64,000 nucleotides of DNA from Deltaproteobacteria bacterium (GTDB lineage Bacteria; Desulfobacterota; RBG-13-43-22), in assembly GCA_016219225.1 (NCBI GenBank), contig JACRBX010000048.1:11952-75951 (forward strand). Reading direction: 5' to 3'. Numbering within the stretch: position 1 is the first letter of the stretch; each line of letters begins with the position of its first letter. A program made the position numbers and the translations under genes. Below are positions 2,383-64,000 of this stretch, piece by piece. Below the pieces are notes generated by a model. That model was not told the origin of the DNA. It searched no databases and saw only the letters and a list, made by a program, of their open reading frames with translations.

Positions 2383-3858
2383 TTGCGTCACAGGATCTTC
2401 GGAACCGAAAACGAATATGCCCCTTTTGACCATAACCAGACGGCAACGCCCCAGGTCCCGCTATCCAACAGGGGTTGGCCCGAGGATCAAGGGGAATTGG
2501 CCGCCGGCCTGATCGAAGGCCTTCAGGGGTGCCAATACCCTCGGGCCGGAGAATTTTTGGGCAACGGTGGCCGATTGTACCTGGATCGGGGCGGGCACCC
2601 GGAATACGCTACCCCGGAGTGCCGCACGGTAAAAGACCTGGTGGCTCATGAAAAGGCCGGGGACGTCCTTATCCAGGCACTGGTGGAGAAGGTGCGCTCC
2701 CAACAACCCCACAACCGCCTCCATGTATACAAGAACAATTGCGATTCTTATGGCCACACCTATGGCGGCCATGAGAATTACCTGGTCACTTCCCTGGCCA
2801 TGAAGCATCTCGATCGTCTCGTCCCTTTCCTGGTTACCCGCCAGATCTATACCGGTACGGGCAAGATCATGACTTCCCCGCTCTGCAGCCTTCCGGCCTT
2901 CCAAATCAGCCAGCGGGCCGATTTTTTCGACGCAACCTTTTCCGACCGGACCTCCGAGACCCGGGGCATCATCAACATCCGTAAACGCGAAATAGCCCGG
3001 CCCGGAGAAAACCAGCGCCTGCATATCATCGTGGGCGACAGCAACATGTCCCAACCGGCCCTGGCCCTCAAAATAGGAACCACGGCCCTGATATTGCGGC
3101 TGTTGGAAGAAGAGGCCCTGGGCGAGGTCTTGGCCCTGGGCGCACCGGCCCAGGCCATCAAAGCGATCTCCCGTTCTTTGAAGGCCCCGGTGGCCATCCG
3201 GCGTCAAGGGCGGACCTTGCAGTACACGGCTTTAGAGGTCCAATCCCTGTATTTGGAAAAAGCCCTTCGATTCTGTGCCCGTCCGGGCACCGACCCCGAA
3301 GAGATCCGCTGGCTGGGCCTCTGGGAATATGTTTTGAAGGCCCTTAAATTTTTGGAAATCTCTCAGTCCGAGATGCTTCTTATCAACGACCCGGGAGAAT
3401 TGAAAAGAAAAATCGACTGGGTACTTAAACTCTGGCTCCTCAGCCGCTCCCGGTCCAAGGGTGCCGATGATCGGCAATTGAAACTCCTGGATCTGATATA
3501 CCACGACCTGGACCCTGCCTCCGGGCTCTTTGAACGTTGTCAGGCCCTGGGGCTGGTAGACCGGCTTGTGGACGAGGAGCGCATCCGACAGGCCCGGCGC
3601 AATCCTCCTGCGGACACCCGGGCCAGGCTGCGGGGCCTGATCATACAAAAAGCTTTTCATCAAAACGTGGACGTCCAGGTGGAGAACTGGGAAAGCATCC
3701 AGGTCCGGGCCCATCATCGTCGGGCCGGGATAAACCACCCTTTCCGCAACCTTACCACCGCGATGAACAAACTGGGGATCCGTCTGGATGACCCCTTCCA
3801 GGGAGAAAATCCCCAGGCCCTGGAGGAACTGGAACAATTTATTTTGGCCTGGGGCTGA
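2383..3858 (+). CDS. Pup-ligase/deamidase family protein (PafA/Dop-like, carboxylate-amine ligase)
   Basis: Motifs shared with PafA/Dop: N-terminal RIFGTENEY, GGRLYLDRGGHPEYATPEC, GGHENYL, LVPFLVTRQI, RLHIIVGDSNMS, DTRARLRG. No long Dop-loop insertion is apparent. Confidence 0.85.
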   Translation: MRHRIFGTENEYAPFDHNQTATPQVPLSNRGWPEDQGELAAGLIEGLQGCQYPRAGEFLGNGGRLYLDRGGHPEYATPECRTVKDLVAHEKAGDVLIQALVEKVRSQQPHNRLHVYKNNCDSYGHTYGGHENYLVTSLAMKHLDRLVPFLVTRQIYTGTGKIMTSPLCSLPAFQISQRADFFDATFSDRTSETRGIINIRKREIARPGENQRLHIIVGDSNMSQPALALKIGTTALILRLLEEEALGEVLALGAPAQAIKAISRSLKAPVAIRRQGRTLQYTALEVQSLYLEKALRFCARPGTDPEEIRWLGLWEYVLKALKFLEISQSEMLLINDPGELKRKIDWVLKLWLLSRSRSKGADDRQLKLLDLIYHDLDPASGLFERCQALGLVDRLVDEERIRQARRNPPADTRARLRGLIIQKAFHQNVDVQVENWESIQVRAHHRRAGINHPFRNLTTAMNKLGIRLDDPFQGENPQALEELEQFILAWG

Positions 3859-6950: not shown

Positions 6951-8975
6951 CTAATGCTCGCTGCTGAGGTGAGGCAGGTGACCATAGCCGGTTTGAATCT
7001 TGTACAGGATACGCAGGAGTTCAGCGCAGGCAATGGGTTTGCGCACCACCCGATCGACCCCGCAACGGGACAGTTCGGCCGGATCAAGCTTTTTATCCAC
7101 ACCGGTATAGAGCAGAAAAGGGGTTTTCGGACGTCCGGTCTGTCTGGCGTAATCCAGGGCGGCCCGCCCGAGTTCCAGTCCATTCATCCCGTCCATGCCA
7201 AAATCACACAGGATCACATCATAACGGTCCCCATAAATAGAGGCCAGACCTTTCTCGGCTGTACCGGCGGTCGTAAGATCGACCGGGGAATCTTCAAAGA
7301 ACATCTCCATCATCTTGAGAATATTCTTTTCGTCGTCGATGAGTAAAAATTTTATTTTTGTTTCGTTTGAGGTTCGTTCGCCGGGGATATTTTCCTTCTC
7401 TTCTATGGCCGGAGCCTGGGACCGGGGCAGGATGATGGTAAAAGTGGCCCCTTTCCCCGGACCGCTGTTAACAACCATGTCCCCCTGGTGTTTCTTAATG
7501 ATGCCATAACTGGAAGAAAGGCCCAGACCGCTGCTCTTTTCCCCTTTGGTTGTAAAAAAGGGCTGGAAAAGACGTTGCCGGTTTTCTTCTAAAATCCCTT
7601 CCCCCGTATCGCTGATCGACAAAAGAACATGTTCCGGTCGGTTCTCGGGAGAGATCGTCAGGACACCCCCTTTCGGCATGGCCTCCAGGGCGTTTTTGAT
7701 AAGGTTCACCAGAACTTCGTACAGTTCGGACGGATTACCCCTGACCCGGCCTCCCAAAGGCCGGATATAGTTCAGACGATATTTGCCCGGGTTGGCCGGA
7801 TTGGCCCAGAGTGAAGAGGTGAGCTGCACGGCTTCGGATACCAGGTCACCCAGATCGAACACCTTGGCCTCTTCGATTTTATCGGTCTTGGCTGCGGTAA
7901 ATTCCTTGATCCGCCGGACAATATCGGCTCCTCGATGGCAGGCTTCCATCATGGTCAGAATGGCCTCGCGGCTTTTTCGGATTTCTCCGGAAGCCAGCTT
8001 GTTCAGGGCCGCTTCGCCGCCCCCCAGGATCATTTGAAGAAGGTTATTGAAATTGTGGGCCACGCCGCTGGCCATTTCCCCAACGGCCGACAACCGTTCG
8101 CTTCGAATCAGTTTTTCTTCCATCCGTTTCCGGGCGCTCAAATCCCGGGCAACGCTCAGCACCGCCGGTTTGCGTTGAAAATCGATAAGCCGCGAATGAA
8201 ATTCATAGGGGATGATCTCACCGGATTGGGTAATTGTTTCGAGTTCAAATTGAACCGTTTCTCCGGAGCGGACTTTTTCGCCCATACGCCGCAAAACCTT
8301 TAATTGCGTCGGCCGGACAATGTCGGTAAAGGTCAGGTTAAGCAACTGCTGGCGGGTGTATTGCAGCCGGAGGCAGGCCACGTCGTTGACCTCCAGAAAG
8401 GCTCCCTGGGAATGACTGATAAAGACCGGATCGATGACGTTATCAAACAGTTCCTTATAGCGCAGCAGCCCTTCGTTTTTTTTACGTTCGGTGATATCCC
8501 GGGCCAGGGCTACAAAACATTTTTTCTCCTGAACCTCCACAACCATGCCGGTGACTTCGGCATCGACCAGATCCCCGTCCCTTTTGCGAAAGCTTCTTTC
8601 TTGAATGTGAACAACGCCCTCGGCCACTGCCTTGCGAATATTCTCGATGACCCCTTCGGCACCCGGGGCGAGAATATGTTCGATCCCCATGGTCAGGAGC
8701 TCGGCCCGGGAATAGCCCAACCATCGCAGGGTAAAAGGATTGCAGTCCAAGATGCCGTGGCTCTCCATATCCAGGATATAGATGGCCTCTGGGGCATTTT
8801 CTATAATGGCCCGGAAGTTGGCTTCCGAAGTACTGACCTTTTCCAGGACTTGATTGAATTCAGCGGTGGCTTCCTTGAGCAGGTTGGTCAGGATGTCCGA
8901 CTTACGCTCAGATTGCTCCAGAAGCTCTTCCAACTCCTGGATCCGTTGTTCGAGGCTTTGGATCCTTTCCATCAT
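6951..8975 (-). CDS. Hybrid sensor histidine kinase (coiled-coil, PAS, HisKA/HATPase, C-terminal receiver)
   Basis: H-box SGVAHNFNNLLQ, ATPase motifs DTGEGI...GLGLS, and a C-terminal receiver domain LLIDDE...DVILCDFGMDGMNGLEL. Confidence 0.85.
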   Translation of the reverse strand: MMERIQSLEQRIQELEELLEQSERKSDILTNLLKEATAEFNQVLEKVSTSEANFRAIIENAPEAIYILDMESHGILDCNPFTLRWLGYSRAELLTMGIEHILAPGAEGVIENIRKAVAEGVVHIQERSFRKRDGDLVDAEVTGMVVEVQEKKCFVALARDITERKKNEGLLRYKELFDNVIDPVFISHSQGAFLEVNDVACLRLQYTRQQLLNLTFTDIVRPTQLKVLRRMGEKVRSGETVQFELETITQSGEIIPYEFHSRLIDFQRKPAVLSVARDLSARKRMEEKLIRSERLSAVGEMASGVAHNFNNLLQMILGGGEAALNKLASGEIRKSREAILTMMEACHRGADIVRRIKEFTAAKTDKIEEAKVFDLGDLVSEAVQLTSSLWANPANPGKYRLNYIRPLGGRVRGNPSELYEVLVNLIKNALEAMPKGGVLTISPENRPEHVLLSISDTGEGILEENRQRLFQPFFTTKGEKSSGLGLSSSYGIIKKHQGDMVVNSGPGKGATFTIILPRSQAPAIEEKENIPGERTSNETKIKFLLIDDEKNILKMMEMFFEDSPVDLTTAGTAEKGLASIYGDRYDVILCDFGMDGMNGLELGRAALDYARQTGRPKTPFLLYTGVDKKLDPAELSRCGVDRVVRKPIACAELLRILYKIQTGYGHLPHLSSEH

Positions 8976-12811: not shown

Positions 12812-14011
12812 TTAGAGCTCTTCCTGCTGAACCATCTCCGAGGCCTTACATTGCGCCTCTTCCCATACCTTTTTTATTGGCACATGCTGTTCCCGGGCGA
12901 TCCGTTTACAATCCTCATACTCCGGGGCGATGTTGACGGCCCGGTTATCGAACCGGGCCACTTTGCACTGGACCCGCCCGAAGCGGGTGCTGACCTCCTG
13001 GATCTTTCGGTTGAGCCGCAGACGCTGATCCAGACGCCAGCGCAGTCCGATGGTCGTGGTCTCCCGAAAAATAAAATCGGCCAGACCGGGCAGTTGTTCG
13101 AGACGGCAGAGGATGGTCACCAGGACCCCGGTGCGGTTTTTTTTCATCTGCACCGAAGTGAAAAAAATATCCAGGGCGCCCTGTTGTAAAACCCTTTCAA
13201 TCAAAAAATCATAGAACTGCGGGTTCATGTCATCGATGGTCGTTTCAATAACCGCCGTTTGTTCCACTTCGTATTGGGTCAACCCCTGGGCCGTTTGTCC
13301 GATAAAAAGACGCAACAGGTTGGCCAGGGAGCGATCGGCGGTTCCTGCGCCCTGTCCGACCTTTTCCACGGTCATGGCCGGCATGGGCCCGAATTCGGTC
13401 GCCAGGGTGGTCAAAATTGCGGCCCCGGTCGGGGTAAGCAATTCCCCTTGAACCCCGGTAGCATAAACCGGCTTCCCGATGATCAACTCAGCCGTGGCCG
13501 GGGCCGGCACCGGCAGAAGGCCATGAGCGCATTCCACGGTTCCTGTTCCCACATGGAGTGGCGAGCAATGGATCTTCTCGATCCCCAGTCCCCGTATACC
13601 GATAGCCGCACCGACCACATCAATGATGGCGTCCATGGCGCCTACCTCGTGAAAATGGATGGAAGCCACCTCCGTCTGGTGCACTTTGGCCTCGGCCTCG
13701 GCCAGACGGCTAAAGATCTTCAGACTGTCGTCTTTAATAGCCTGATCCAGACGGCTTTCTTCAATGATCGCCCGAATGTCTTCCAGGTGTCGATGATGAT
13801 GATGGTGATGATCCTGGTCGATAGTCACCAGGGCCTGGCTGCCGGACAACCCTTTTTTAACGACCTTCACGACCTTAAGGTCGTAGTGGGACAACGACAG
13901 CTTGGACAGTTCATTTTGTAGATACTCCAGGGGCAATCCCGCATCCAGGAGGGCCCCCAGAATCATATCGCCGCTGGCTCCGGAAAAACAATCAAAATAA
14001 GCGATCTTCAT
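12812..14011 (-). CDS. larC: Nickel-pincer cofactor biosynthesis protein LarC (DUF111 nickel insertase)
   Basis: N-terminus MKIAYFDCFSGASGDM is typical of LarC; a His-rich linker (DHHHHHHRH) is present; 399 aa. Confidence 0.8.
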   Translation of the reverse strand: MKIAYFDCFSGASGDMILGALLDAGLPLEYLQNELSKLSLSHYDLKVVKVVKKGLSGSQALVTIDQDHHHHHHRHLEDIRAIIEESRLDQAIKDDSLKIFSRLAEAEAKVHQTEVASIHFHEVGAMDAIIDVVGAAIGIRGLGIEKIHCSPLHVGTGTVECAHGLLPVPAPATAELIIGKPVYATGVQGELLTPTGAAILTTLATEFGPMPAMTVEKVGQGAGTADRSLANLLRLFIGQTAQGLTQYEVEQTAVIETTIDDMNPQFYDFLIERVLQQGALDIFFTSVQMKKNRTGVLVTILCRLEQLPGLADFIFRETTTIGLRWRLDQRLRLNRKIQEVSTRFGRVQCKVARFDNRAVNIAPEYEDCKRIAREQHVPIKKVWEEAQCKASEMVQQEEL

Positions 14012-14876
14012 TTTCCATTTTCTCCTTTCTGTTCAGGAGGCTTCCATCCGGGTCCAGGGTTGTTAACCGGGAAAGATCGTTATGGCCGACAGGAGGTTCA
14101 AGAGGTTTTTGCTCTTGGCCGGCCGCGAGCTGATTAATGAGGCTGGCTTGATATCCTGCTCCGAAACCGTTGTCGATATTCACCACAGAGACCCCCGAGG
14201 CGCAACTGTTCAGCATGGAAAGCAGGGCGGCCACCCCCCCAAAACTGGCCCCGTAACCCACGCTGGTCGGAACCCCGATCACCGGACAGGAAACCAGCCC
14301 GCCGACAACGCTGGCCAAAGCCCCTTCCATCCCGGCGATGACGATAGCCACCTTGGCCTTGAATAAATCTTCGCAGGAATTCAGAAGGCGGTGCAGGCCG
14401 GCCACCCCCACGTCGTACAGGCGGTCGACCCGGTTGCCGAGGGTTTCGGCCGTAATGGCCGCTTCTTCGGCTACGGGAATATCGGAAGTGCCGGCACAAA
14501 CCACGGCAATCCGGCCGGATTTTATAACCGGCCTGGGCTTGACGACCACAATGCGGCCCATGGGGTGAAATTGACAGTCGGTGGTGATTTCCAAGATAGC
14601 CTCATGGACCAGGCGGTCGGCGCGGGTGGCCAGGATGTTGCCGTGGTGTTTGGCCATCCTCTCCACTATTCCCTGAATCTGCTCCAGGGTTTTACCTTGA
14701 CAATAGATGACTTCCGGGACACCATTGCGCAGACAGCGATGGTGATCCACCTTGGCATAACCCAGATCTTCGAAAGGCAATTTTTTTAAACGCTCCAGAC
14801 CGGTATCGACACTTACCCGCCCCCCCTGGATATTTTCCAATAGATCTTTCAGTTGCTGTCTGTTCATCTTTTCCAA
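13992..14876 (-). CDS. larB: Nickel-pincer cofactor biosynthesis protein LarB (PurE-like carboxylase/hydrolase)
   Basis: Motifs VVCAGTSDIPVAEEA, DVGVAGLHRLL, IAGMEGALASVVGGLV, IGVPTSVGYGA and LNSCASGVSVVNIDNGFGAG match LarB. Confidence 0.8.
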   Translation of the reverse strand: MEKMNRQQLKDLLENIQGGRVSVDTGLERLKKLPFEDLGYAKVDHHRCLRNGVPEVIYCQGKTLEQIQGIVERMAKHHGNILATRADRLVHEAILEITTDCQFHPMGRIVVVKPRPVIKSGRIAVVCAGTSDIPVAEEAAITAETLGNRVDRLYDVGVAGLHRLLNSCEDLFKAKVAIVIAGMEGALASVVGGLVSCPVIGVPTSVGYGASFGGVAALLSMLNSCASGVSVVNIDNGFGAGYQASLINQLAAGQEQKPLEPPVGHNDLSRLTTLDPDGSLLNRKEKMENEDRLF

Positions 14877-55579: not shown

Positions 55580-57220
55580 TTACCACGGATCGACGAAAGA
55601 GTGTCCGGTCCCCTTCCTGCCTTCAGCCGGGACGGATCTCAAGCCTTCCAGAAGCCAGCGGCGGGTCTCGGCCGGATCAATTACGGCATCGATTTCGAGA
55701 TGGGAGGCCATATTGATGGCCTTTCCCCTCTCATAGAGTTGGGCAACCAATTTTTCGTAGAGCGCTTCACGCTCCTTGGGATTTTCAATAGCCGCAAGCT
55801 CTTTCTTGTATCCGGCTTTAACCGCGCCTTCCAGCCCCATGCCCCCGAATTCTCCGGTCGGCCAGGCCACCGTGAAGAACGATTCATGAAAGCCCCCCCT
55901 GGCCATAGCCATGGCTCCCAGACCGTATCCCCGGCGTAAAACAACCGTAAAGTACGGTATGGTTAGATGAGCGCCGACAACAAACATACGGCAAACATGG
56001 CGAACCTGGGCCCGTTTCTCGATCTCCGGCCCCACCATGAATCCCGGGGTGTCGCACAAAGACAGTATCGGCAGGCCATGGGCATTGCAAAGCTGCATCA
56101 GGCGCACGGCTTTGTCGGCATCTTCGGCTTCGATAGCTCCGCCCATATGCTTGCAGTTGTTGGCGATCAGACCGAAAGGTCTTCCTTCGATGCGGATCAG
56201 GCCCGTAACCATTCCGGGTCCGAATTGGGGCCGAAGCTCCAGAAACGATCCCGTATCGGCAAGCGTTTTAATCACGGTCCGCACTTCATAAACCCGGCGC
56301 CGGTTTTCCGGCAGCAAGCCCCGCAGAATACCCTGGTCGGCGGCCTCCCAGGGGGAAGTCGTTCCCTGGAAATAAGAAAGATATTGCCTGGCCGCGGCCA
56401 CCATCTCCTGATCATCCGCCACAGCGATATCGACTACGCCGTTTTTGGTCTGCACCTCAATGGGGCCAACCTCCTCCGGTCTGAAAACCCCGAGTCCGCC
56501 GCCTTCAATCATCACCGGTCCGCCCATACCGATATTGGAATTCCTGGTGGCAATAATCACATCGCAGCAGCCGAGCAGGGCTGCATTGCCTGCAAAACAG
56601 GGTCCTGATACGAGGCCTATCATCGGAACCCGGCCGCTGAGTCTGGCGAACAAGGCGAAGGTCGATAAATCCAGCCCTGCCACTACGACCCCGTCGGCAT
56701 CAACATCGCCCGGCCTTCCACCGCCGCCTTCCCCGAAAAAAATCAGGGGCAGGCGCTGCTCATAGGCCAGCTTCAGTATACGATCCTTCTTTTTGTGGTT
56801 AAAATAACCCTGGGTGCCGGCCAGAACGGTATAATCATAGGCCATCACCAGACAGCGGGCCTGGTCATCTCCGCATTGGGAGCCGTTTACCGACCCGATG
56901 CCTGTGATCAGGCCGTCGGCCGGGGTCTTGCTGATGAGGTCTTCCATGGAACGCCGCCCCCGTTGGGCGGCGATGGCGAGTGCGCCGTATTCAATGAAAC
57001 GTCCCGGGTCGCAGAGGTCCTCTATGTTGGCGCGGACCGTGCGCTGGTTTTTTTGCCGCCGCCGGGCCACCGCCTCGGGGCGATTTGCATCAAGGCCGAA
57101 AGAATGGCGCTGGATCACCTCGGCCAGTTCAGGACGTATCGGATGCCGGTCGGTTTTTTTATCAATGGGCGGGCCACTCTTTCCGGCCATCGCTTCTTCT
57201 TTATCTTTAGATGTTTTCAT
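55580..57220 (-). CDS. Acyl-CoA carboxylase carboxyltransferase subunit (PccB/MmdA-like)
   Basis: Both halves of the carboxyltransferase domain are present; start set at MKTSKDK with AGGTG upstream. Confidence 0.8.
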   Translation of the reverse strand: MKTSKDKEEAMAGKSGPPIDKKTDRHPIRPELAEVIQRHSFGLDANRPEAVARRRQKNQRTVRANIEDLCDPGRFIEYGALAIAAQRGRRSMEDLISKTPADGLITGIGSVNGSQCGDDQARCLVMAYDYTVLAGTQGYFNHKKKDRILKLAYEQRLPLIFFGEGGGGRPGDVDADGVVVAGLDLSTFALFARLSGRVPMIGLVSGPCFAGNAALLGCCDVIIATRNSNIGMGGPVMIEGGGLGVFRPEEVGPIEVQTKNGVVDIAVADDQEMVAAARQYLSYFQGTTSPWEAADQGILRGLLPENRRRVYEVRTVIKTLADTGSFLELRPQFGPGMVTGLIRIEGRPFGLIANNCKHMGGAIEAEDADKAVRLMQLCNAHGLPILSLCDTPGFMVGPEIEKRAQVRHVCRMFVVGAHLTIPYFTVVLRRGYGLGAMAMARGGFHESFFTVAWPTGEFGGMGLEGAVKAGYKKELAAIENPKEREALYEKLVAQLYERGKAINMASHLEIDAVIDPAETRRWLLEGLRSVPAEGRKGTGHSFVDPW

Positions 57221-57354
57221 GGGCTGCACCTTTCCCTTAATTCCCTCCGGAGTTTTTCCCGCAAAAGGCAGGAACGGAATTTTAAAAATCTATACCAAGA
57301 AATCCACAAAGTCAAAATGTTTGGACCCGGCGTTTAAAGACAAGAAGCACTGTT

Positions 57355-57545: not shown

Positions 57546-57990
57546 GATCCCCGAAGAATCTTATCGGTCAGTTTTTCCGTCTTTCCTGTTCCATGACCCC
57601 TCCTTTGGGGAGAGGAAGCCCAAAAAAAAATCCCCGGCCGGGCATCTGCCGGTCGGGGAACCATTTTTGAACCCCCTCACCGGTCTTTACCTCGAAGACG
57701 TTTTCGTGAGGAGATCCAGGCAGGTTTCCTGACTCAGGGATTATTCTCCCCCTGCCCTTCCCATTCCACCCTCAGCCATCCTCGGGTGAAACAGTGGTTA
57801 TTGCAGGGATTGTACCCCTTTACAGTGGCGGGACCGCGCCGGTCTTTCACCGGCTTCCCTATTGACGTCCTTCTTAAGGACACCTGGATCTAACGCTATT
57901 TAATTAATCAGAATCATCGAGGCTTGTCAATTCCCTTTTTCAGCCTCCCTTTTTCCTTTTGTCTTTCTGTCCCTTCCTAAAAAGGAGCCT

Positions 57991-58021
57991 GTAGGGTGGG
58001 GGCAGCGAAGCGTAACCCACC
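57991..58021. repeat. 31-bp palindromic motif copy 1 (gtagggtggg-N15-aacccacc)
   Basis: Near-identical copies lie at 61986-62016 (inverted) and 62084-62115 (direct). Confidence 0.7.
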
Positions 58022-58176
58022 ACAAAAACAAGGTATTCACTTCATTTTTATATCAGTGGGTGAAACGAAGTTCCACCTGTCTTACAGGAGATCCGTCTCA
58101 GATAAATTTATCTTGAAATAAACTCTGTTATGTATTATTTTTAAATAAAATTTAGTCTAAAGGAGGTGAGGATACC

Positions 58177-58338
58177 ATGTGTTGCCATACCAAAGAGAAA
58201 CATGAACACGAGCATGAGCATACCGAGGAGGCTCATACCCACGATGGGCATGAACACAAGCATGAACCGCAAAAGCATGCCCATGAGCATCGTCATGATG
58301 ACGACCATCATGACCACCAGCATCAGTGCTGCCATTAA
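58177..58338 (+). CDS. Histidine-rich micro-protein (53 aa, MCCH...CCH), putative metal-binding
   Basis: Absent from the ORF track (below 60 aa). Strong SD AAGGAGGTGA lies 7 nt before the ATG. Product MCCHTKEKHEHEHEHTEEAHTHDGHEHKHEPQKHAHEHRHDDDHHDHQHQCCH; a hairpin plus T-tract follows the stop. Confidence 0.6.
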   Translation: MCCHTKEKHEHEHEHTEEAHTHDGHEHKHEPQKHAHEHRHDDDHHDHQHQCCH

Positions 58339-58365
58339 AGGGAAGCCACAACTTTAGTTACAAAA

Positions 58366-58428
58366 GAAGCCACGAAGGCAATCACCTGGTCTGAAGATCG
58401 GGAGGTTTTCGTGGCTTCCCTTTTTTAG
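58366..58428 (+). terminator. Intrinsic terminator after the His-rich ORF, with an alternative 5' pairing partner
   Basis: gaagccacgaa...ttcgtggcttc followed by ccttttttag. An upstream gggaagccac (58341-58350) can also pair with the same 3' arm. Confidence 0.55.
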
Positions 58429-58477
58429 AGAGGGATTACGTTGATGTACCTTTTCAAGAACAAGGATTCTTTTTTTA

Positions 58478-58508
58478 TTGACATCTGAGGAGAAACTGTC
58501 GTATTAAT
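58478..58508 (+). promoter_or_regulatory. Sigma-70-type promoter candidate for the TonB-dependent receptor operon
   Basis: TTGACA, 18-nt spacer, TATTAAT. Confidence 0.45.
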
Positions 58509-58567
58509 TTGTTTCAGGAAGGCTACGAAGGCCATTCCTTGTTTGATTAAAAGCAAGTATCTTAGTT

Positions 58568-58625
58568 AAGGCCACGAAGGCCAGGGCTGAAAAACAGCCG
58601 GGTTTTCTTGGCCTTTTTTATTTCA
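58568..58625 (+). promoter_or_regulatory. Leader hairpin plus U-tract (attenuator/riboswitch-like) in the receptor 5' leader
   Basis: aaggccacgaaggccagggctgaaaaacagccgggttttcttggccttttttatt. The GCYACGAAGGC motif is repeated three times (58369, 58524, 58571), which allows alternative pairings. Confidence 0.4.
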
Positions 58626-58862
58626 GGGGAAAGGACTTTACGCTGATCAAGCGTGCGTTTTAAGTGACATACAAGGAGGTGTTGGAGGAGATGAAACTCC
58701 AATGCCTATAAGGAAATGGGTAAAGATAAGAAGCCGGCAGGGCCACAACCTTTGGCCAGGGGCGCCCTGCCGGCAGGAGTAACGTCGTACCGAACAAACG
58801 CCCCCCTTTTTAGTTAATACCAGAAAGGGGGTGAAAAAACAAAAAGAAAAAGGAGGAAATCT

Positions 58863-61172
58863 ATGAGGTGGTTCCTTACTGTTTTTATGAGCCTTCTTCT
58901 GAGTTGGATTATTAATATGCCATTGTCGCAGGCCGAAGAGATAATGGAAAAGCCCGGACAGGAAGAAACCAAACTTGAGCTTGAGGAGATTGTCGTCACC
59001 CCCACCGGCAGGATATCGAATGAAGCCTTGGTCAACATCCCCGCCGTAGTCGAATCCTTAACCCCCGAAGGTATTGAGCGGATCAATGCCATTGATACCT
59101 CGGATGTCTTCAAGTACCTGCCCGGTTCCTATTTACGTAAACTTGCCCCGGGCTCCACCAACAGGCCTTTGATCATCCGGGGCAATGCCTCGTTTCTGAC
59201 CGCCCGGACCCTGGTGCTGGCCGACGGAATCCGGATCAGCGATTTTCTGGCCGCCGGAAACAGCAACGGACCCAAATGGCAGATGGTGGCACCCGAGGAG
59301 ATCGAGCGGGTGGATGTCATTTACGGCCCCTATTCGGCGGCCCTCAGCGGCAATTCGCTTTCCGGTACGGCTATGATCACCACCCGCTTTCCTCAAAAGA
59401 GGGAAATCCGGGCCGATGCCAATACCTTCTATCAGAACTTCCAGGAATACCATACCAATCTGGACCTCCGGGGATACACGGCCAACGTCTCCTATGGAGA
59501 TAAAATCGGGGGGCTTTCTTTCCTGGCCTGGTATGACCGGCTTGAGACGGACGTCCAGCCAACCACCTACATTACCAGGCAGGCCTCGGCCGGAGGTGTC
59601 TCCGGGGGCAGTGCAGTCACCGGATGGGTATCCGATTCGGATCCCAAGGGAGCGAAAAGATACATTCTGGGAAGCTACGGGAAGCAGGAACTGGTGAACA
59701 ACACCCTTAAGGTCAAAATGGCCTATGATTTAACCTCCGAGCAACAGATCCGTTTTATCTGGGCTTTTTGGGACAGCCGGCAACAAAACGGCGCACCAGA
59801 AACCTATTTGCGGGACGCCCAGGGAAGGCCGGTCTACTCAGGACCGGTGGTCATAAACGGTAAGAGTTATAATCTGGCTGCCAACACCTTCACCTACCAA
59901 AAGGCAGAAAAACAGGACTTTCTCTATGCCCTCACTTATGGGCTCAACTCGGCAACCGGTCTGAAACTGTCGGTCTCCACCAGCTTCTATAATCTGGCCA
60001 AAGACATCACCCGTCAATCGGGCGTAAGCCCTACGGTGTCCGAAAGCGGAGGAGCGGGCAAGGTAACGGATAATGACAATGGCTGGAATACGGCCGATCT
60101 GAAAGGTTCATACGATCTTAAATGGCTTGGTGTGCATACCCTTGGGACCGGTTACCACTTCGACCGTTATTATGTAGACTCGTCGACCTGGAACGCCTCG
60201 GATTGGGATAGGGACATCCGGACCAGTCTCAGTCAAAGGGATCAAGGGAAAACGGAGACCCATGGTTTTTTTCTGGAAGACACCTGGAACCTCGACAAAC
60301 AATGGTCCGTCTATCTGGGAGGCCGGTATGAATGGTGGAAGGGATTCGACGGGGCCAAATCGACCGACGGACTTACCGGACGCATCACAACCGGTCTGGC
60401 CGATAAAAACGAAAAGGGGTTTTCCCCGAAATTCTCAACCACCTTTAAACCATCGGAGGACTGGCGGCTCCGTTTTTCCCTCGGATTGGCCAATCGATAC
60501 CCCACAGTCGGGGAACTCTATTACGGGGGGATTACCTCCCAGGGAATGATCAACAACGGCAATCCTGATCTGAAGCCGGAGAAGATCTTCGCCAAGGATT
60601 TCACCATTACCCGCGCCCTTGGCAGTCTGGGGGATACCCGTCTGACCTTTTTCGAAGATGACGTCAAGGACGCCATTAACAACCAAACCAGCTTCTATAC
60701 CAATTGGACCAACTACCAGAACGTCGATGAGGTCAGGACCAGAGGGATCGAGTTGGCTGTAAATCTGCAAAGATTCCTGATCCCCGGTCTGGGATTATTT
60801 ACCAATGTCGCCTGGACCGAGTCGGAGATTCTGAGGAACGACAATGTCCCGGCCAGCGTCGGTAAGACCTTCCCCCGGGTGCCGAAATGGCGGCTGAAAT
60901 GCGTTCTGGACTATGCCCCTTCGGAACGCTGGTTTGTGACCTTCAGCGGGCATTATGCCAGCAAACAGTTCGGAACGCTGGACAACAGCGATACCAACGA
61001 CGGATATGGTGCAATCGATCGTTTCCTGGTTTTTGACACCAAGTTTTCCTATAAACTGCACAAGAATCTGACGGCCGCCGTCGGGGTCGACAACCTCACC
61101 AACGTATTATATCACGTTTCCCACCCCTATCCGAGAAGGACCTTTTTTGCCAATTTGAAATTTAATTTTTAA
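58863..61172 (+). CDS. TonB-dependent outer-membrane receptor
   Basis: Signal peptide, plug domain, a 22-strand-barrel-like region and a terminal aromatic residue (...LKFNF); 769 aa. Confidence 0.9.
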   Translation: MRWFLTVFMSLLLSWIINMPLSQAEEIMEKPGQEETKLELEEIVVTPTGRISNEALVNIPAVVESLTPEGIERINAIDTSDVFKYLPGSYLRKLAPGSTNRPLIIRGNASFLTARTLVLADGIRISDFLAAGNSNGPKWQMVAPEEIERVDVIYGPYSAALSGNSLSGTAMITTRFPQKREIRADANTFYQNFQEYHTNLDLRGYTANVSYGDKIGGLSFLAWYDRLETDVQPTTYITRQASAGGVSGGSAVTGWVSDSDPKGAKRYILGSYGKQELVNNTLKVKMAYDLTSEQQIRFIWAFWDSRQQNGAPETYLRDAQGRPVYSGPVVINGKSYNLAANTFTYQKAEKQDFLYALTYGLNSATGLKLSVSTSFYNLAKDITRQSGVSPTVSESGGAGKVTDNDNGWNTADLKGSYDLKWLGVHTLGTGYHFDRYYVDSSTWNASDWDRDIRTSLSQRDQGKTETHGFFLEDTWNLDKQWSVYLGGRYEWWKGFDGAKSTDGLTGRITTGLADKNEKGFSPKFSTTFKPSEDWRLRFSLGLANRYPTVGELYYGGITSQGMINNGNPDLKPEKIFAKDFTITRALGSLGDTRLTFFEDDVKDAINNQTSFYTNWTNYQNVDEVRTRGIELAVNLQRFLIPGLGLFTNVAWTESEILRNDNVPASVGKTFPRVPKWRLKCVLDYAPSERWFVTFSGHYASKQFGTLDNSDTNDGYGAIDRFLVFDTKFSYKLHKNLTAAVGVDNLTNVLYHVSHPYPRRTFFANLKFNF

Positions 61173-61182
61173 AGGAGATCCA

Positions 61183-61980
61183 ATGAAAAAGATGATAGAC
61201 CAAAAATCGTTCCGGATGTTTTTTATTGTTTTTCTGTTTTCGATGGTCCCTGTGGGGTTAAGCCAGGCACATGACACCTGGATCAATATGCAGAACTACC
61301 GGCTCAACCAATCCGATCCGGCAGTACTTAGTGTGACCAATGCCCACAGCTTCGTGATCCCCGGCAAGGAGTTGCTGCCGTCAGGCCAGGTGGACACAGT
61401 CTTGTTTTTAAGCCCTGATGGTAAGGAAATCCCTTCCATACCGGAAGGAAACGAGAAATATAAATCCAACCTTCCCCTCAAGACCGATGGGTCCTATATG
61501 GCGGTCGTTAAAAAAAAGGTCTTGTTTTCCAGCAAGACCGTGGATGGCTACCAACGGGGAAAGAATAAAAGAGACCTGAAGGACGTCATCGAGTGCAGCC
61601 ATTCGGAGAAATATGCCAAGGCCCTTTTCACGGTTGGGGTTGCGGCAGGGGACGTTTACTCAAAGGTCCTGGGCCATCCGATGGAAATAGTTCCCTTGCA
61701 GGATCCAGGCAAACTCAAAGCAGGCGATCTATTGATGGTCAAGATCCTCATTCGGGGAAATCCGGCCAGGAACACCCTTTATGGGACCTATGCCGGATTT
61801 TCCACTGAGCCCAACACCTTTGCCTATACCACTTCGACGGATAAAGAGGGGGTCGCCAGGATCAGGCTCCTTAAAGAGGGCCTATGGCTGCTGATCGCCC
61901 GGCAGGATTTTGCTTACCCGGATCCGACGGTCTGCGACAAACAATCCTATGCGGCTTCCCTGACTTTCCAGGTCAGGTAG
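61183..61980 (+). CDS. DUF4198 (CbiK/NikK-like) periplasmic Ni/Co uptake component
   Basis: Signal peptide, then a mature N-terminus AHDTWIN. This family is typically linked to TonB-dependent Ni/Co transporters. Confidence 0.7.
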   Translation: MKKMIDQKSFRMFFIVFLFSMVPVGLSQAHDTWINMQNYRLNQSDPAVLSVTNAHSFVIPGKELLPSGQVDTVLFLSPDGKEIPSIPEGNEKYKSNLPLKTDGSYMAVVKKKVLFSSKTVDGYQRGKNKRDLKDVIECSHSEKYAKALFTVGVAAGDVYSKVLGHPMEIVPLQDPGKLKAGDLLMVKILIRGNPARNTLYGTYAGFSTEPNTFAYTTSTDKEGVARIRLLKEGLWLLIARQDFAYPDPTVCDKQSYAASLTFQVR

Positions 61981-61985
61981 CAATT

Positions 61986-62115
61986 GGTGGGTTACGCTTC
62001 GCTGCACCCACCCTACGGGAATATTGCCATAGGATCGAAAAAAACTTTGTCCAGGTGGATTGCCCCATCGCCTAACCCAAAATGTAGGGTGGGTGGAGTG
62101 ATAGCGGAACCCACC
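61986..62115. repeat. ~130-bp palindrome made of two inverted copies of the 31-bp gtagggtggg...aacccacc motif
   Basis: ggtgggttacgcttcgctgcacccaccctac ... gtagggtgggtggagtgatagcggaacccacc, flanked by caattgg/ccaattaat. Confidence 0.7.
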
Positions 62116-62135: not shown

Positions 62136-62642
62136 ATGAGAAAACCCAATTTTTTTTATTACAACCAGACCTGTAGGGCCGGGGTCATCCAAACCGGCCT
62201 GCTGGTCATGATTATCGGGATAGTAGCCGGACTCAGCCCTCCGGCCACGGCCCACACCATTCAATATCAGGTCGAAAACAAAGGGATCAGCGTCAGGATT
62301 TTTTCCGGACCGGATAAGCCGATAAGTTATTCCGCCTATGAAATCTTCGGCCCTTCCGATAAAATTCCCCACCAGAAAGGCCGGACGGATAAAAACGGTT
62401 TTGTCTCCTTTCTGCCCGACCGGCAGGGGAAATGGGTGGTCCAGGTTCAGGAAGATTCCGATCACGGCCCCCACGGAGCCCGGATCACGATCGAAGTCAA
62501 TCAAAACCTTTTCATGAAATCCTTTAAAAAACCTCTGGTCGCCCAATATACCAAAGGCCTTGTCGGCGTCAGCTTTATCCTGGCCATTTTCGGGATTTGG
62601 GCCTTATTGAAATCGAAAAGGAGAAAAAATGGATTGGCTTAA
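62136..62642 (+). CDS. Membrane-anchored periplasmic transthyretin/CarboxypepD_reg-like protein
   Basis: Signal peptide (cleavage near ATA-HT), a TDKNGFVSF motif and a C-terminal TM helix ([16 protein letters not shown]). Confidence 0.55.
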
Positions 62643-63063
62643 AATGGCCGTAGATTACGGTATCATTGGATTTTTAATTATTCTCAGCATGATTGCCATT
62701 GGGATCGCCATTGAAAGGTTTTTCGTTTTCAGGCAGATCCGGATCGAGGGTTTTCCGGACCAAAAGACCCTCGAGCTGGAACTCACCCGAAAGCTCCATC
62801 TCATCGCCACGATCGGCAGCAACGCCCCCTATATCGGTCTTCTGGGTACGGTCCTGGGTATCATGCTTACTTTTTATACCATCGGGCAGGAGGGCTTTAT
62901 GGATACGGGCAAGATCATGGTCGGCCTGGCCCTGGCCCTGAAAGCCACGGCCGTCGGTCTTCTGGTAGCCATTCCTTCCGTATCGTTATACAATTTTCTG
63001 CTTAGAAAAATTAAGGTTTTGCTGATGTCTTGGGAGATTGAACATGGAAGAAAAGTCCTTTGA
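62629..63063 (+). CDS. exbB: ExbB/TolQ/MotA family proton-channel protein (short form)
   Basis: 144 aa with 3 TM segments and an ExbB-like signature ([10 protein letters not shown]). Confidence 0.7.
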
Positions 63064-63424
63064 TTATATCAATGTCATCCCCTTAGTGGATGTCATGCTG
63101 GTCCTCCTGACCATTACCCTGACCACCTCTTCCTTTATAGCCAGCGGGATGATCCCCATGGATCTGCCTAAGGCCCATCGAAGCCAGGGAGAAATACTGA
63201 AGACCCAGACGGTGGAAATCGATAAGGCAGGAAAAATTTATCTGAATACCAAACCGGTATCTCTGGAAGGGTTGAAAACCAGCCTGGCCTCCATGAACAA
63301 AAAAGTCCCGGTCCTGATTCGGGCCGATCGGCAGCTCATCCTGCAGACCTTTGTCAGTGTCCTGGATGTGGTCAAGGGTCTGGAATTTTCCAGGGTGAGT
63401 CTGCAGACCGAGGAGGTAAAATGA
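63038..63424 (+). CDS. exbD: ExbD/TolR biopolymer transport protein
   Basis: 128 aa with a single N-terminal TM ([14 protein letters not shown]) and a periplasmic domain. Confidence 0.8.
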
Positions 63425-64000
63425 GAGTCCAGGTCAAAGCCTTCCAGATCTCCTTTTTGTTTCATAGCATCCTGTTGGTCGCCGCCCTGGGTCTAAGCAC
63501 CCAAATGGGAGTGTCAATAAAGATAATGGTCCTGGACTTCAACTTGTACAAACCGGAACCTTTAGTCAAAACAGTCGCCTCGCCCCCCACGGCTCCCCTC
63601 CCCCGGAAAAAAGAGATGAAAACCAACCAGGCTCAAAGCTTAACGAAAAATGAACCCCTTGAGCAGGTTAAAAAACCCGAAGCAGCCCCACCCGTGGACA
63701 TTCCACCAGTGGTGAACCCCCCGGAAGTCCAAAGTACGGAAAGCCCGTCCCTGGGTCTAAGAATGGTTGTCGGCACAAAGTCCGCCCAGGAGGGCGTCGC
63801 GGGTACTCCTGGTCGGGTGAGGGACGGGACCGGAACCGGCCTGGGGACAGGCCAAGTTACAGGCGGCGGAGAAAATCCAGGTTCGGATGGCAAGACCGAG
63901 GCAGCCAAAGCCCGATATCTTAAAGAACACTTCGCCTATATCCGGGATAAAATTCTTAATAATATCAGCTACCCGACACTGGCGCGCCGTATGGGCTGGC
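63421..64000 (+). CDS. tonB: TonB energy transducer, 3' end beyond window
   Basis: N-terminal TM, a Pro-rich spacer (PPTAPLPRKKE...PPVDIPPVVNPPEV) and the start of the C-terminal domain; the ORF is still open at the window end. Confidence 0.7.
   Translation, partial: MRVQVKAFQISFLFHSILLVAALGLSTQMGVSIKIMVLDFNLYKPEPLVKTVASPPTAPLPRKKEMKTNQAQSLTKNEPLEQVKKPEAAPPVDIPPVVNPPEVQSTESPSLGLRMVVGTKSAQEGVAGTPGRVRDGTGTGLGTGQVTGGGENPGSDGKTEAAKARYLKEHFAYIRDKILNNISYPTLARRMGW

Follow-up and report, generated by a model that had tools for sequence, protein, structure and literature searches.

A CCH-capped, histidine-rich small protein family at nickel and cobalt import loci, and a conserved RNA element that follows its long-form genes

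In a stretch of 64,000 nt from a Deltaproteobacteria bacterium (contig JACRBX010000048.1; this whole stretch is called the window below), a short His-rich ORF lies on the plus strand upstream of genes for a TonB-dependent uptake system. The sequence-only reading of the window had proposed an untracked micro-protein acting as an Hpn-like metallochaperone or storage peptide, or else as a metal-sensing leader. This raises the question whether the ORF is a gene at all and, if so, what its product and the RNA structure that follows it may do.

The ORF runs from the ATG at position 58177 to the TAA at 58336-58338 (+), and its translated product is MCCHTKEKHEHEHEHTEEAHTHDGHEHKHEPQKHAHEHRHDDDHHDHQHQCCH. 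This 53-aa protein carries four modules of the HxHxHxH type and, as had been read from the letters, is capped at both ends by Cys-Cys-His, with CC pairs at residues 2-3 and 51-52 and a His after each. Histidine accounts for 19 of the 53 residues, which is 36% and not the 40% given earlier. There are also 9 Glu, 5 Asp, 4 Lys, 1 Arg and 4 Cys, making the peptide acidic (14 Asp+Glu versus 5 Lys+Arg), and neither a signal peptide nor a hydrophobic segment was found in it. In the DNA of the gene, the modules appear as three repeats with a spacing of 48-60 nt. The Shine-Dalgarno sequence AAGGAGGTGA (58160-58169, +), previously called near-perfect, is indeed fully complementary over 10 nt to the canonical 16S 3' tail and is located 7 nt 5' of the ATG. 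A promoter scan revealed a promoter-like site, TTGAAA-17-TATTTT, at 58113-58141 (+), and in homologous loci a TTGACA-type -35 box is found at the same place. Two antisense ORFs of 64 aa on the minus strand (58141-58335 and 58157-58351) were rejected as genes and are by-products of the His/Glu codons; the antisense frame in register with the peptide gene contains a stop in one homologue and has a pN/pS above 1.

Single-sequence protein searches with the 53-aa peptide (a word-index search and full HMMER against 1.84 billion representatives) gave no match; filters against biased composition and small ORFs that were never called are the probable reason. The protein databases have no record of the exact product, and a tblastn search of plasmids left the peptide unmatched as well. 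Homologues came from three other sources. A scan for His-rich ORFs around relatives of the receptor, which is the kind of search suggested earlier for CCH-capped ORFs near TonB-dependent receptors, uncovered a 53-aa ORF in a Nitrospira MAG (L001) that is 75% identical and has the same MCCH...CCH ends. A degenerate-pattern metagenome scan added eight further homologous loci, and a profile search at relaxed E-value yielded 18 called proteins, several of which are frameshifted fragments. The distribution of the family obtained in this way is under-sampled and possibly skewed, since compositional bias hides much of it from protein searches. Nevertheless, homologues with matching length and caps, on which purifying selection acts, exist in more than 20 other loci, and thus the ORF in the window lies far beyond what chance would produce.

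It had also been asked whether the ORF, as opposed to just the DNA, is conserved. In nine full-length homologues the variable columns are distributed over codon positions 1, 2 and 3 as 19, 17 and 47. For the annotated frame, a pN of 0.15 over a pS of 0.77 (saturated) gives a pN/pS of 0.19. All nine genes are open in this frame and in one other only, and that other frame has a pN/pS of 1.33; the remaining frames contain stops or show a pN/pS above 1, and none of them is both open and constrained. Conservation is thus found at the protein level and in the annotated frame only. Start, stop, length, SD and the TTGACA-type -35 box are all kept among the homologues, and the SD core AAAGGAGG is invariant in 10 homologous loci. 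This selection pattern and the kept signals identify the ORF (58177-58338) as a genuine protein-coding gene under purifying selection with a promoter of its own, and its promoter, strong SD and terminator predict that it is transcribed independently. We looked for a shared operator of the NikR, Fur or ArsR type at the promoters of the peptide genes, and none was conserved across lineages. The palindrome over the -35 region differs by lineage, being TTTCCTTGACATTAAGGAAA in L010-L014 and TGACTTAAAGTCA in L001, while AT-rich repeats are present in the window.

Profile searches of Pfam, NCBIfam and the PDB left the family unmatched, and a few of the homologues are called 'hypothetical protein'. 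A CCH-capped His-rich family is not described in the literature searched, and a study of nickel homeostasis in cable bacteria has no such protein among those it lists. The family is thus undescribed in the databases and papers searched and missed by the domain databases, and the description 'untracked' was largely right.

The family exists in two forms, a long one of 53 aa and a short one of 38 aa, which share the same layout: an N-terminal CCH cap, alternating-His HxHxHxH modules (four in the long and three in the short form) and a C-terminal CCH. The consensus of the short form, as obtained from the profile search, is MCCHxxDKHEHAHxHxGEKHVHEHIHDGxHKHGHKCCH. Invariant positions in 18 bacterial and archaeal sequences are M1, C3, H4, K8, H9/11/13/15, H34/36, E37, H38/40, H45/47/49 and C51-C52-H53. 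The AlphaFold2 model of the peptide is of low confidence (pLDDT 62, pTM 0.27) and shows short strands at the HxHxHxH modules; such a model fits a peptide whose structure would depend on metal, or one that would be disordered without it. An assignment to the bacterial metallothioneins (SmtA/BmtA) was rejected, since these are defined by a Cys-rich zinc cluster and the peptide has four Cys only and matches no Pfam or NCBIfam model, that of metallothionein included.

What surrounds the gene in the window? Downstream and on the same strand lies the gene of a TonB-dependent receptor with Plug and beta-barrel (58863-61172, +; TonB_dep_Rec and Plug matches), relatives of which, at 57-66% identity, occur in Desulfobacterota and Nitrospira MAGs. 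It is followed by a gene for a periplasmic metal-binding protein of the DUF4198 (NikK) type (61183-61980, +), identified by domain match, in which ...SQAHDTW is the sequence around the predicted signal-peptide end. Next come a 168-aa membrane protein (62136-62642, +) with a weak match to the NikL family (NF058648, E = 2.6e-7, 30.8 bits against a curated cut-off of 100), ExbB (62629-63063, +) and ExbD (63038-63424, +), both recognised by domain matches, and a Pro-rich TonB (63421-64000, +), which was recognised from its translation and runs off the end of the window; its homologue in L001 has a TonB_C domain. Together these co-oriented genes have the layout of a TonB-dependent uptake system of the Ni/Co type. 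Binding of Ni with nM affinity has been demonstrated for DUF4198 proteins (PMC12537917), and so has binding of Zn, for which they can be specific (PMC12663993). The peptide gene had been placed directly upstream of this operon. Strand and block were described correctly, but 524 nt separate the ORF from the receptor gene, and this gap holds a second unit of promoter and terminator. Likewise, the peptide gene heads the locus in the window, but this is incidental, since elsewhere it is found in the middle or at the end of the locus.

No NikR gene was found in the window, and tblastn did not detect relics of cbiK, nikR, cbiM or the efflux membrane-fusion gene there. The only cobalamin riboswitch of the window, which is full-length (57702-57902, -; 115 bits), lies upstream of the peptide gene at a distance of 275 nt and is directed away from the uptake locus. 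The next convincing gene on its strand, 470 nt further on, encodes a carboxyltransferase (55580-57229), an unusual target. In related loci, a cobalamin riboswitch precedes the gene of the periplasmic CbiK, and relatives of the uptake locus in the window are found near such a riboswitch-controlled cbiK (L002). Further, at 12812-14876 (-) the window encodes LarC (Ni_insertion), which contains a run of HHHHHH, along with a LarB-like AIR carboxylase; the organism thus makes the nickel-pincer cofactor and has a demand for nickel.

Across the family, the peptide gene was found in several settings of Ni/Co genes. In one, the TonB-dependent kind, the L001 gene lies within the homologous block, between the NikL-like gene and tonB, with a NikA-type binding protein and two DUF4198 genes nearby. 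In another, the peptide gene comes straight after ECF transporters of the CbiM/NikMN type, CbiM(-PDGLE)-CbiQ-CbiO (L020, L022, L023, L024/25, L026 and L029); in L017 only the ATPase gene of the transporter is visible beside it, and one JGI contig has the order NikL-CbiQ-CbiO-x-DUF4198, peptide gene, Fur-family gene. Elsewhere, it is arranged tail-to-tail with the gene of a CbiK chelatase with signal peptide (L010, L011, L012, L015 and L016), and a cobalamin riboswitch lies ahead of cbiK in L012, L015 and L016. In L019, a 3.9-Mb archaeal contig, the methyl-coenzyme M reductase operon and a DUF4198 gene flank the peptide gene, and both CbiM-PDGLE and NikR are encoded no more than 8 kb away; in L024 the distance to NikR is 1.5 kb. 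A CusB/HlyD-type efflux gene occupies the other flank in L012 and L014. L013 (1 kb of DNA) and L028 are the sole loci with no Ni/Co gene within the short DNA examined. The long-form genes occur in cobalt/B12-flavoured contexts and the short-form genes in NikR/MCR contexts. Judged by these neighbourhoods, the family is tied to the import and use of Ni/Co, and three unrelated kinds of importer together with NikR, CbiK and the F430 enzyme as neighbours point to Ni and/or Co as the likely metal. Zn is a less likely candidate, in view of the DUF4198 proteins that are specific for it.

Two further kinds of small genes were noticed in such loci. A conserved protein of 122-125 aa without Pfam match, carrying the Cys/His motifs HKWPLCCSFYH ... 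KWHHSCQLC, is always encoded between the ECF transporter and the 38-aa peptide gene (L020 9124-9492, L021 722-1090, L022 3676-4044, L024 7260-7628, L026 7112-7480 and L017 1060-1437). Small ORFs rich in His/Glu/Lys, free of Cys and unrelated to the CCH family (MEGKHDHTHEHEHGHRHEH..., MTEKHEHEHKPEKMHEH...) were seen in Ni/Co loci of these kinds, and a strong SD precedes each of them; they are located at L004 8955-9172 (running off the contig end), L020 8981-9088, L022 3459-3641 and L024 6947-7129.

Taking sequence, gene context and analogy together, we consider it likely that the peptide is a cytoplasmic buffer, store or chaperone for Ni/Co, which binds several Ni(II) and/or Co(II) ions per chain. 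A 6-kDa protein of this kind would serve as buffer, reserve or hand-over point for freshly imported metal. Its Met1 is probably removed, since Cys is a small second residue, and this would leave an NH2-Cys-Cys-His N-terminus. The N-terminal and the C-terminal Cys-Cys-His could then form high-affinity thiolate/imidazole/amine (N/S) sites, while the HxHxHxH modules would offer sites of lower affinity and higher capacity, for roughly 4-6 ions in each chain. In its metal-free state, the peptide is probably disordered. By capturing incoming Ni/Co, it would limit the level of free ion and stock metal for client enzymes or chelatases. The proposed binding mode follows the established chemistry of Hpn, the SlyD tail, the HypB N-terminus, which carries a CxxCGC metal site, and ATCUN motifs.

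The closest known counterpart is Hpn, which has His-rich runs and -CC- motifs, binds 5 Ni per monomer, stores nickel and is induced by NikR (PMC4671568). Like Hpn and Hpn-2, which are about 60 aa long, the peptide is predicted to be cytoplasmic, is very rich in His, contains acidic residues, has a small gene of its own and is linked to NikR-controlled nickel traffic. Hpn-type proteins are small, with more than 30% His and one or two -CC- motifs (PMC4671568), and the peptide has 53 aa, 36% His and two CC pairs. The two differ in several respects, however. The -CC- motifs of Hpn are at one end and those of the peptide cap both termini; Hpn has poly-His runs and the peptide has alternating HxHxHxH modules, the length and register of which are strictly kept. 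Hpn belongs to gastric Helicobacter, the peptide to bacteria of the Desulfobacterota/Nitrospira type and to an archaeon encoding MCR, where its gene, unlike that of Hpn, lies inside or adjoins import loci. Homology is undetectable (BLASTP with an H. pylori Hpn query, 11.9 bits, E = 0.74). Thus, of the earlier designation 'Hpn-like', the role of metallochaperone or store is favoured by the comparative evidence (the pN/pS of 0.19 and the Ni/Co contexts) and by analogy, and a common origin is not.

His/Cys-rich stretches that bind Ni and feed the maturation of Ni enzymes are also present in E. coli SlyD (its C-terminal tail), HspA, CooJ, UreE and HypB. They resemble the peptide in being rich in His/Asp/Glu and broken by Cys pairs, and several Ni are bound by such tails. 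Those stretches are appendages of folded chaperones or GTPases, however, whereas the members of the peptide family are free-standing proteins of 38-57 aa without any other domain. To our knowledge, cytoplasmic storage of nickel by small His-rich proteins was so far a peculiarity of Helicobacter. The CCH-capped family would be a simple, conserved candidate for holding Ni/Co in bacteria and archaea, and the step proposed here, the holding and routing of newly imported metal, would take place in anaerobes with a heavy demand for Ni/Co (hydrogenases, CODH/ACS, F430, B12 and the Lar cofactor). Moreover, with short, strict CCH caps and HxHxHxH modules the family could provide a compact model for the coordination chemistry of Ni/Co.

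The main rival to a function in storage or buffering is a regulatory one, in which the small protein would not store metal: it would sense cytoplasmic Ni/Co, bind a transporter or regulator and thereby adjust import or export, similarly to MntS. MntS is a manganese-homeostasis protein of 42 aa, which is made from the rybA transcript and has an exporter as its presumed target. The likeness lies in a tiny protein made from a monocistronic, sRNA-like transcript and devoted to the homeostasis of one metal, although MntS is not His-rich and is unrelated in sequence. A regulatory role on the transporters could explain the genomic association equally well. It would agree with the position of the peptide gene directly after the ECF ATPase gene in at least six loci, with the Fur-family gene adjoining it on the JGI contig, with NikR near it in L019 and L024, and with caps that are kept more strictly than a bulk content of His would need. 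On the other hand, repeated modules with 36% His are typical of a capacity binder, high abundance is suggested by the very strong SD together with the consensus promoter, and there is no partner common to the TonB receptor, ECF and CbiK contexts. Thus, we regard a regulatory role as improbable, though as the strongest of the alternatives.

The RNA downstream of the ORF suggests another possibility. The predicted terminator was found, with the G+C-rich stem and U-run of an intrinsic terminator (58400-58426), yet it is not a plain hairpin. The complete 3' element (58337-58426, +) consists of an outer stem of 13-15 bp, in the window formed by 58337-58349 and 58411-58423, which begins with the AA of the UAA stop codon and encloses two small hairpins. 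It folds with an MFE of -36.7 kcal/mol (z = -5.5) and is followed by T6 (58421-58426). The first of the inner structures is contained in an invariant box, AAGCCACGAAGGC (58367-58379), which can form the mini-hairpin GCC-ACGAA-GGC, and the second is the hairpin CUGGUC-UGAA-GACCGG (58385-58402). The 3' arm, UUCGUGGCUU(U)CC, can pair either with the copy by the stop codon or with an inner copy; in the latter case an alternative inner terminator is formed, which in the window folds at -31.1 kcal/mol. An element of about 90 nt is present right after the stop codon of every 53-aa gene. In the alignment of nine sequences 95.5% of the cells are paired, versus at most 53% in slid controls, and compensatory changes were found at three pairs. 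The U-run is interrupted in L010, L012, L013, L014 and L016. Since it is so in these five loci, and since the box is invariant despite saturated synonymous sites, the conserved element is more than a terminator.

The same box was also found in units that lack the ORF. In the window, such a unit occupies 58478-58621 (+) in the gap between the peptide gene and the receptor gene. It comprises the promoter TTGACA-18-TATTAA (58478-58508), a hairpin (58516-58539) displaying CUACGAAGG, a terminator with the box GGCCACGAAGGCC (58570-58582) and a T-run (58614-58619), and it matches our covariance model R1 with 23 bits. Covariance model and motif search revealed homologous ORF-less units in 11 other loci. 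Most of them have a promoter of the TTGACA/TATAAT type (none is evident in L002), and they share a first hairpin with the loop A(A/U)(C/U)GAA or CACGAAG and a strong terminator with U6-10, the 5' arm of which is the invariant GCCACGAAGG. While this 5' arm is unchanged between the copies, the 3' arm varies mainly from G-C to G-U and the inner hairpin is free to change. Of the matches to C[CT]ACGAAGG, 21 of 24 in the first 253 kb of related-locus DNA lay inside box elements, as did four of five in loci examined later.

The ORF-less units are always co-oriented with the next gene. This gene encodes the TonB-dependent receptor in the window, in L002 (box at 3415) and in L003 (box at 1135), and it is tonB in L001 (unit 8826-8965, box at 8911). 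In L023 and L029 (boxes at 7032 and 5064) it is cbiM, which begins about 95 nt after the U-run, and in L027 (box at 7789, -) a 248-aa gene, whose SD lies 15 nt after the U-run, precedes cbiM. An efflux membrane-fusion gene follows in L012 and L014 (boxes at 2102, -, and 1663, -), and a 178-aa ORF of uncertain identity in L015 (box at 2490, -). These tabulated units represent about eight independent loci; units on the minus strand were also counted at L010 and L013. Between the unit of the window and the receptor gene, the remaining 240 nt contain a leader (58640-58860, +) with more stable hairpins, GCCGGCAGGGC...GCCCTGCCGGC at 58733-58774 and CCCCCTTT...AAAGGGGG at 58802-58831, and no recognisable promoter.

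Rfam gave no match to 58330-58630 of the window, even at E values up to 10, nor to the box RNA of related loci at gathering thresholds. The idea that the 3' element is part of a cobalamin riboswitch was rejected, since the likeness (GGGAAGCC, GCCAC, GAAGGC) is superficial and has no Rfam score behind it. With the NiCo (czcD) and cobalamin riboswitches the CACGAAGG-box RNA has in common that a structured RNA with a terminator precedes Ni/Co transport genes. Unlike them, it has only about 100 nt, and what is conserved in it is the terminator's own 5' arm; neither a ligand pocket nor an antiterminator could be deduced for it. We regard the unit as a candidate for a 5' leader/attenuator or for a small RNA linked to Ni/Co loci, of which a copy is located at the end of the peptide mRNA. 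That the CACGAAGG-box is a new cis-regulatory RNA of Ni/Co uptake, either an attenuator sensing a metal or protein or a small RNA, with the peptide gene in the same circuit, is a rather unlikely extension. If true, peptide and importer would be controlled together by one RNA signal, and these anaerobes would have a post-transcriptional control of Ni/Co import which is absent from Rfam 15. The box would then offer a possible handle on the regulation of Ni/Co import in organisms lacking obvious NikR sites.

If the RNA came first, the transcript would be a dual-function mRNA in which the 3' element with the CACGAAGG-box does the work and the peptide has a secondary role. All nine genes carry the 13-nt box unchanged despite the saturated synonymous sites, and an identical box is present in promoter-bearing, ORF-less units beside Ni/Co genes. 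The ORF, however, is clearly selected as a protein, and the 38-aa subfamily lacks the RNA element entirely, which means that the peptide functions without it. An RNA-first role, which would be compatible with storage or buffering by the peptide, therefore seems to us a little less probable still than the regulatory one.

As a small gene for a Cys-containing peptide adjoins those of a TonB-dependent receptor and of periplasmic metal-binding proteins, one may also think of an exported metallophore or RiPP precursor, which would be re-imported via the receptor according to a logic like that of methanobactin. This is very unlikely. The peptide has no signal peptide and no split into leader and core but is conserved along its entire length, and the gene tables of the loci show no modifying enzyme (MbnB/C, YcaO, radical SAM or MNIO) and no exporter kept alongside. 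Moreover, archaea lack an outer membrane, yet family members adjoin ECF importers both in L019, from an archaeon that encodes MCR, and in loci whose promoters look archaeal.

Least tenable of all is a metal- or histidine-sensing leader peptide, by which translation of the His-rich ORF would control termination before the TonB receptor operon: a short ORF rich in His codons and followed by a terminator does recall hisL, the terminator's 5' arm begins at the stop codon, and both the window and L001 have a co-oriented operon further downstream, but the next gene (cbiK) is convergent in five loci (L010, L011, L012, L015 and L016), so that there is nothing to attenuate, the peptide gene is the last of its operon at the ECF loci (L020-L029), selection acts on the whole peptide and not merely on a run of codons, in the window two terminators and one promoter lie between the ORF and the receptor gene, a 14-bp terminator (-31.1 kcal/mol) still forms when 15 nt after the stop are masked as by a ribosome, and an antiterminator pairing was sought without success. 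The metal-sensing leader proposed from the sequence is thus not borne out, and storage or buffering of Ni/Co by the peptide remains our preferred explanation.

Finally, frameshifts and REP-like repeats were noticed in some copies of the gene and around it. In L023 (9976-10138 and 10140-10460) the peptide gene contains a frameshift, and an insertion of about 200 nt, made up of REP-like palindromes, interrupts its 3' element; in L029, a close relative, the 3' element is intact and the ORF is likewise frameshifted. These frameshifts could be errors of long-read assembly or real decay. In the window, a REP-like palindrome of about 35 nt, CGTAGGGTGGGKGCAGCGAAGCGTAACCCACCA, is present in two inverted copies (57994-58021, +, and 61986-62013, -), the only two in 64 kb. 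The pair brackets the peptide gene, the ORF-less RNA unit and the genes of the receptor and the DUF4198 protein, and could either mark a mobile or rearranged segment or represent ordinary REP elements.
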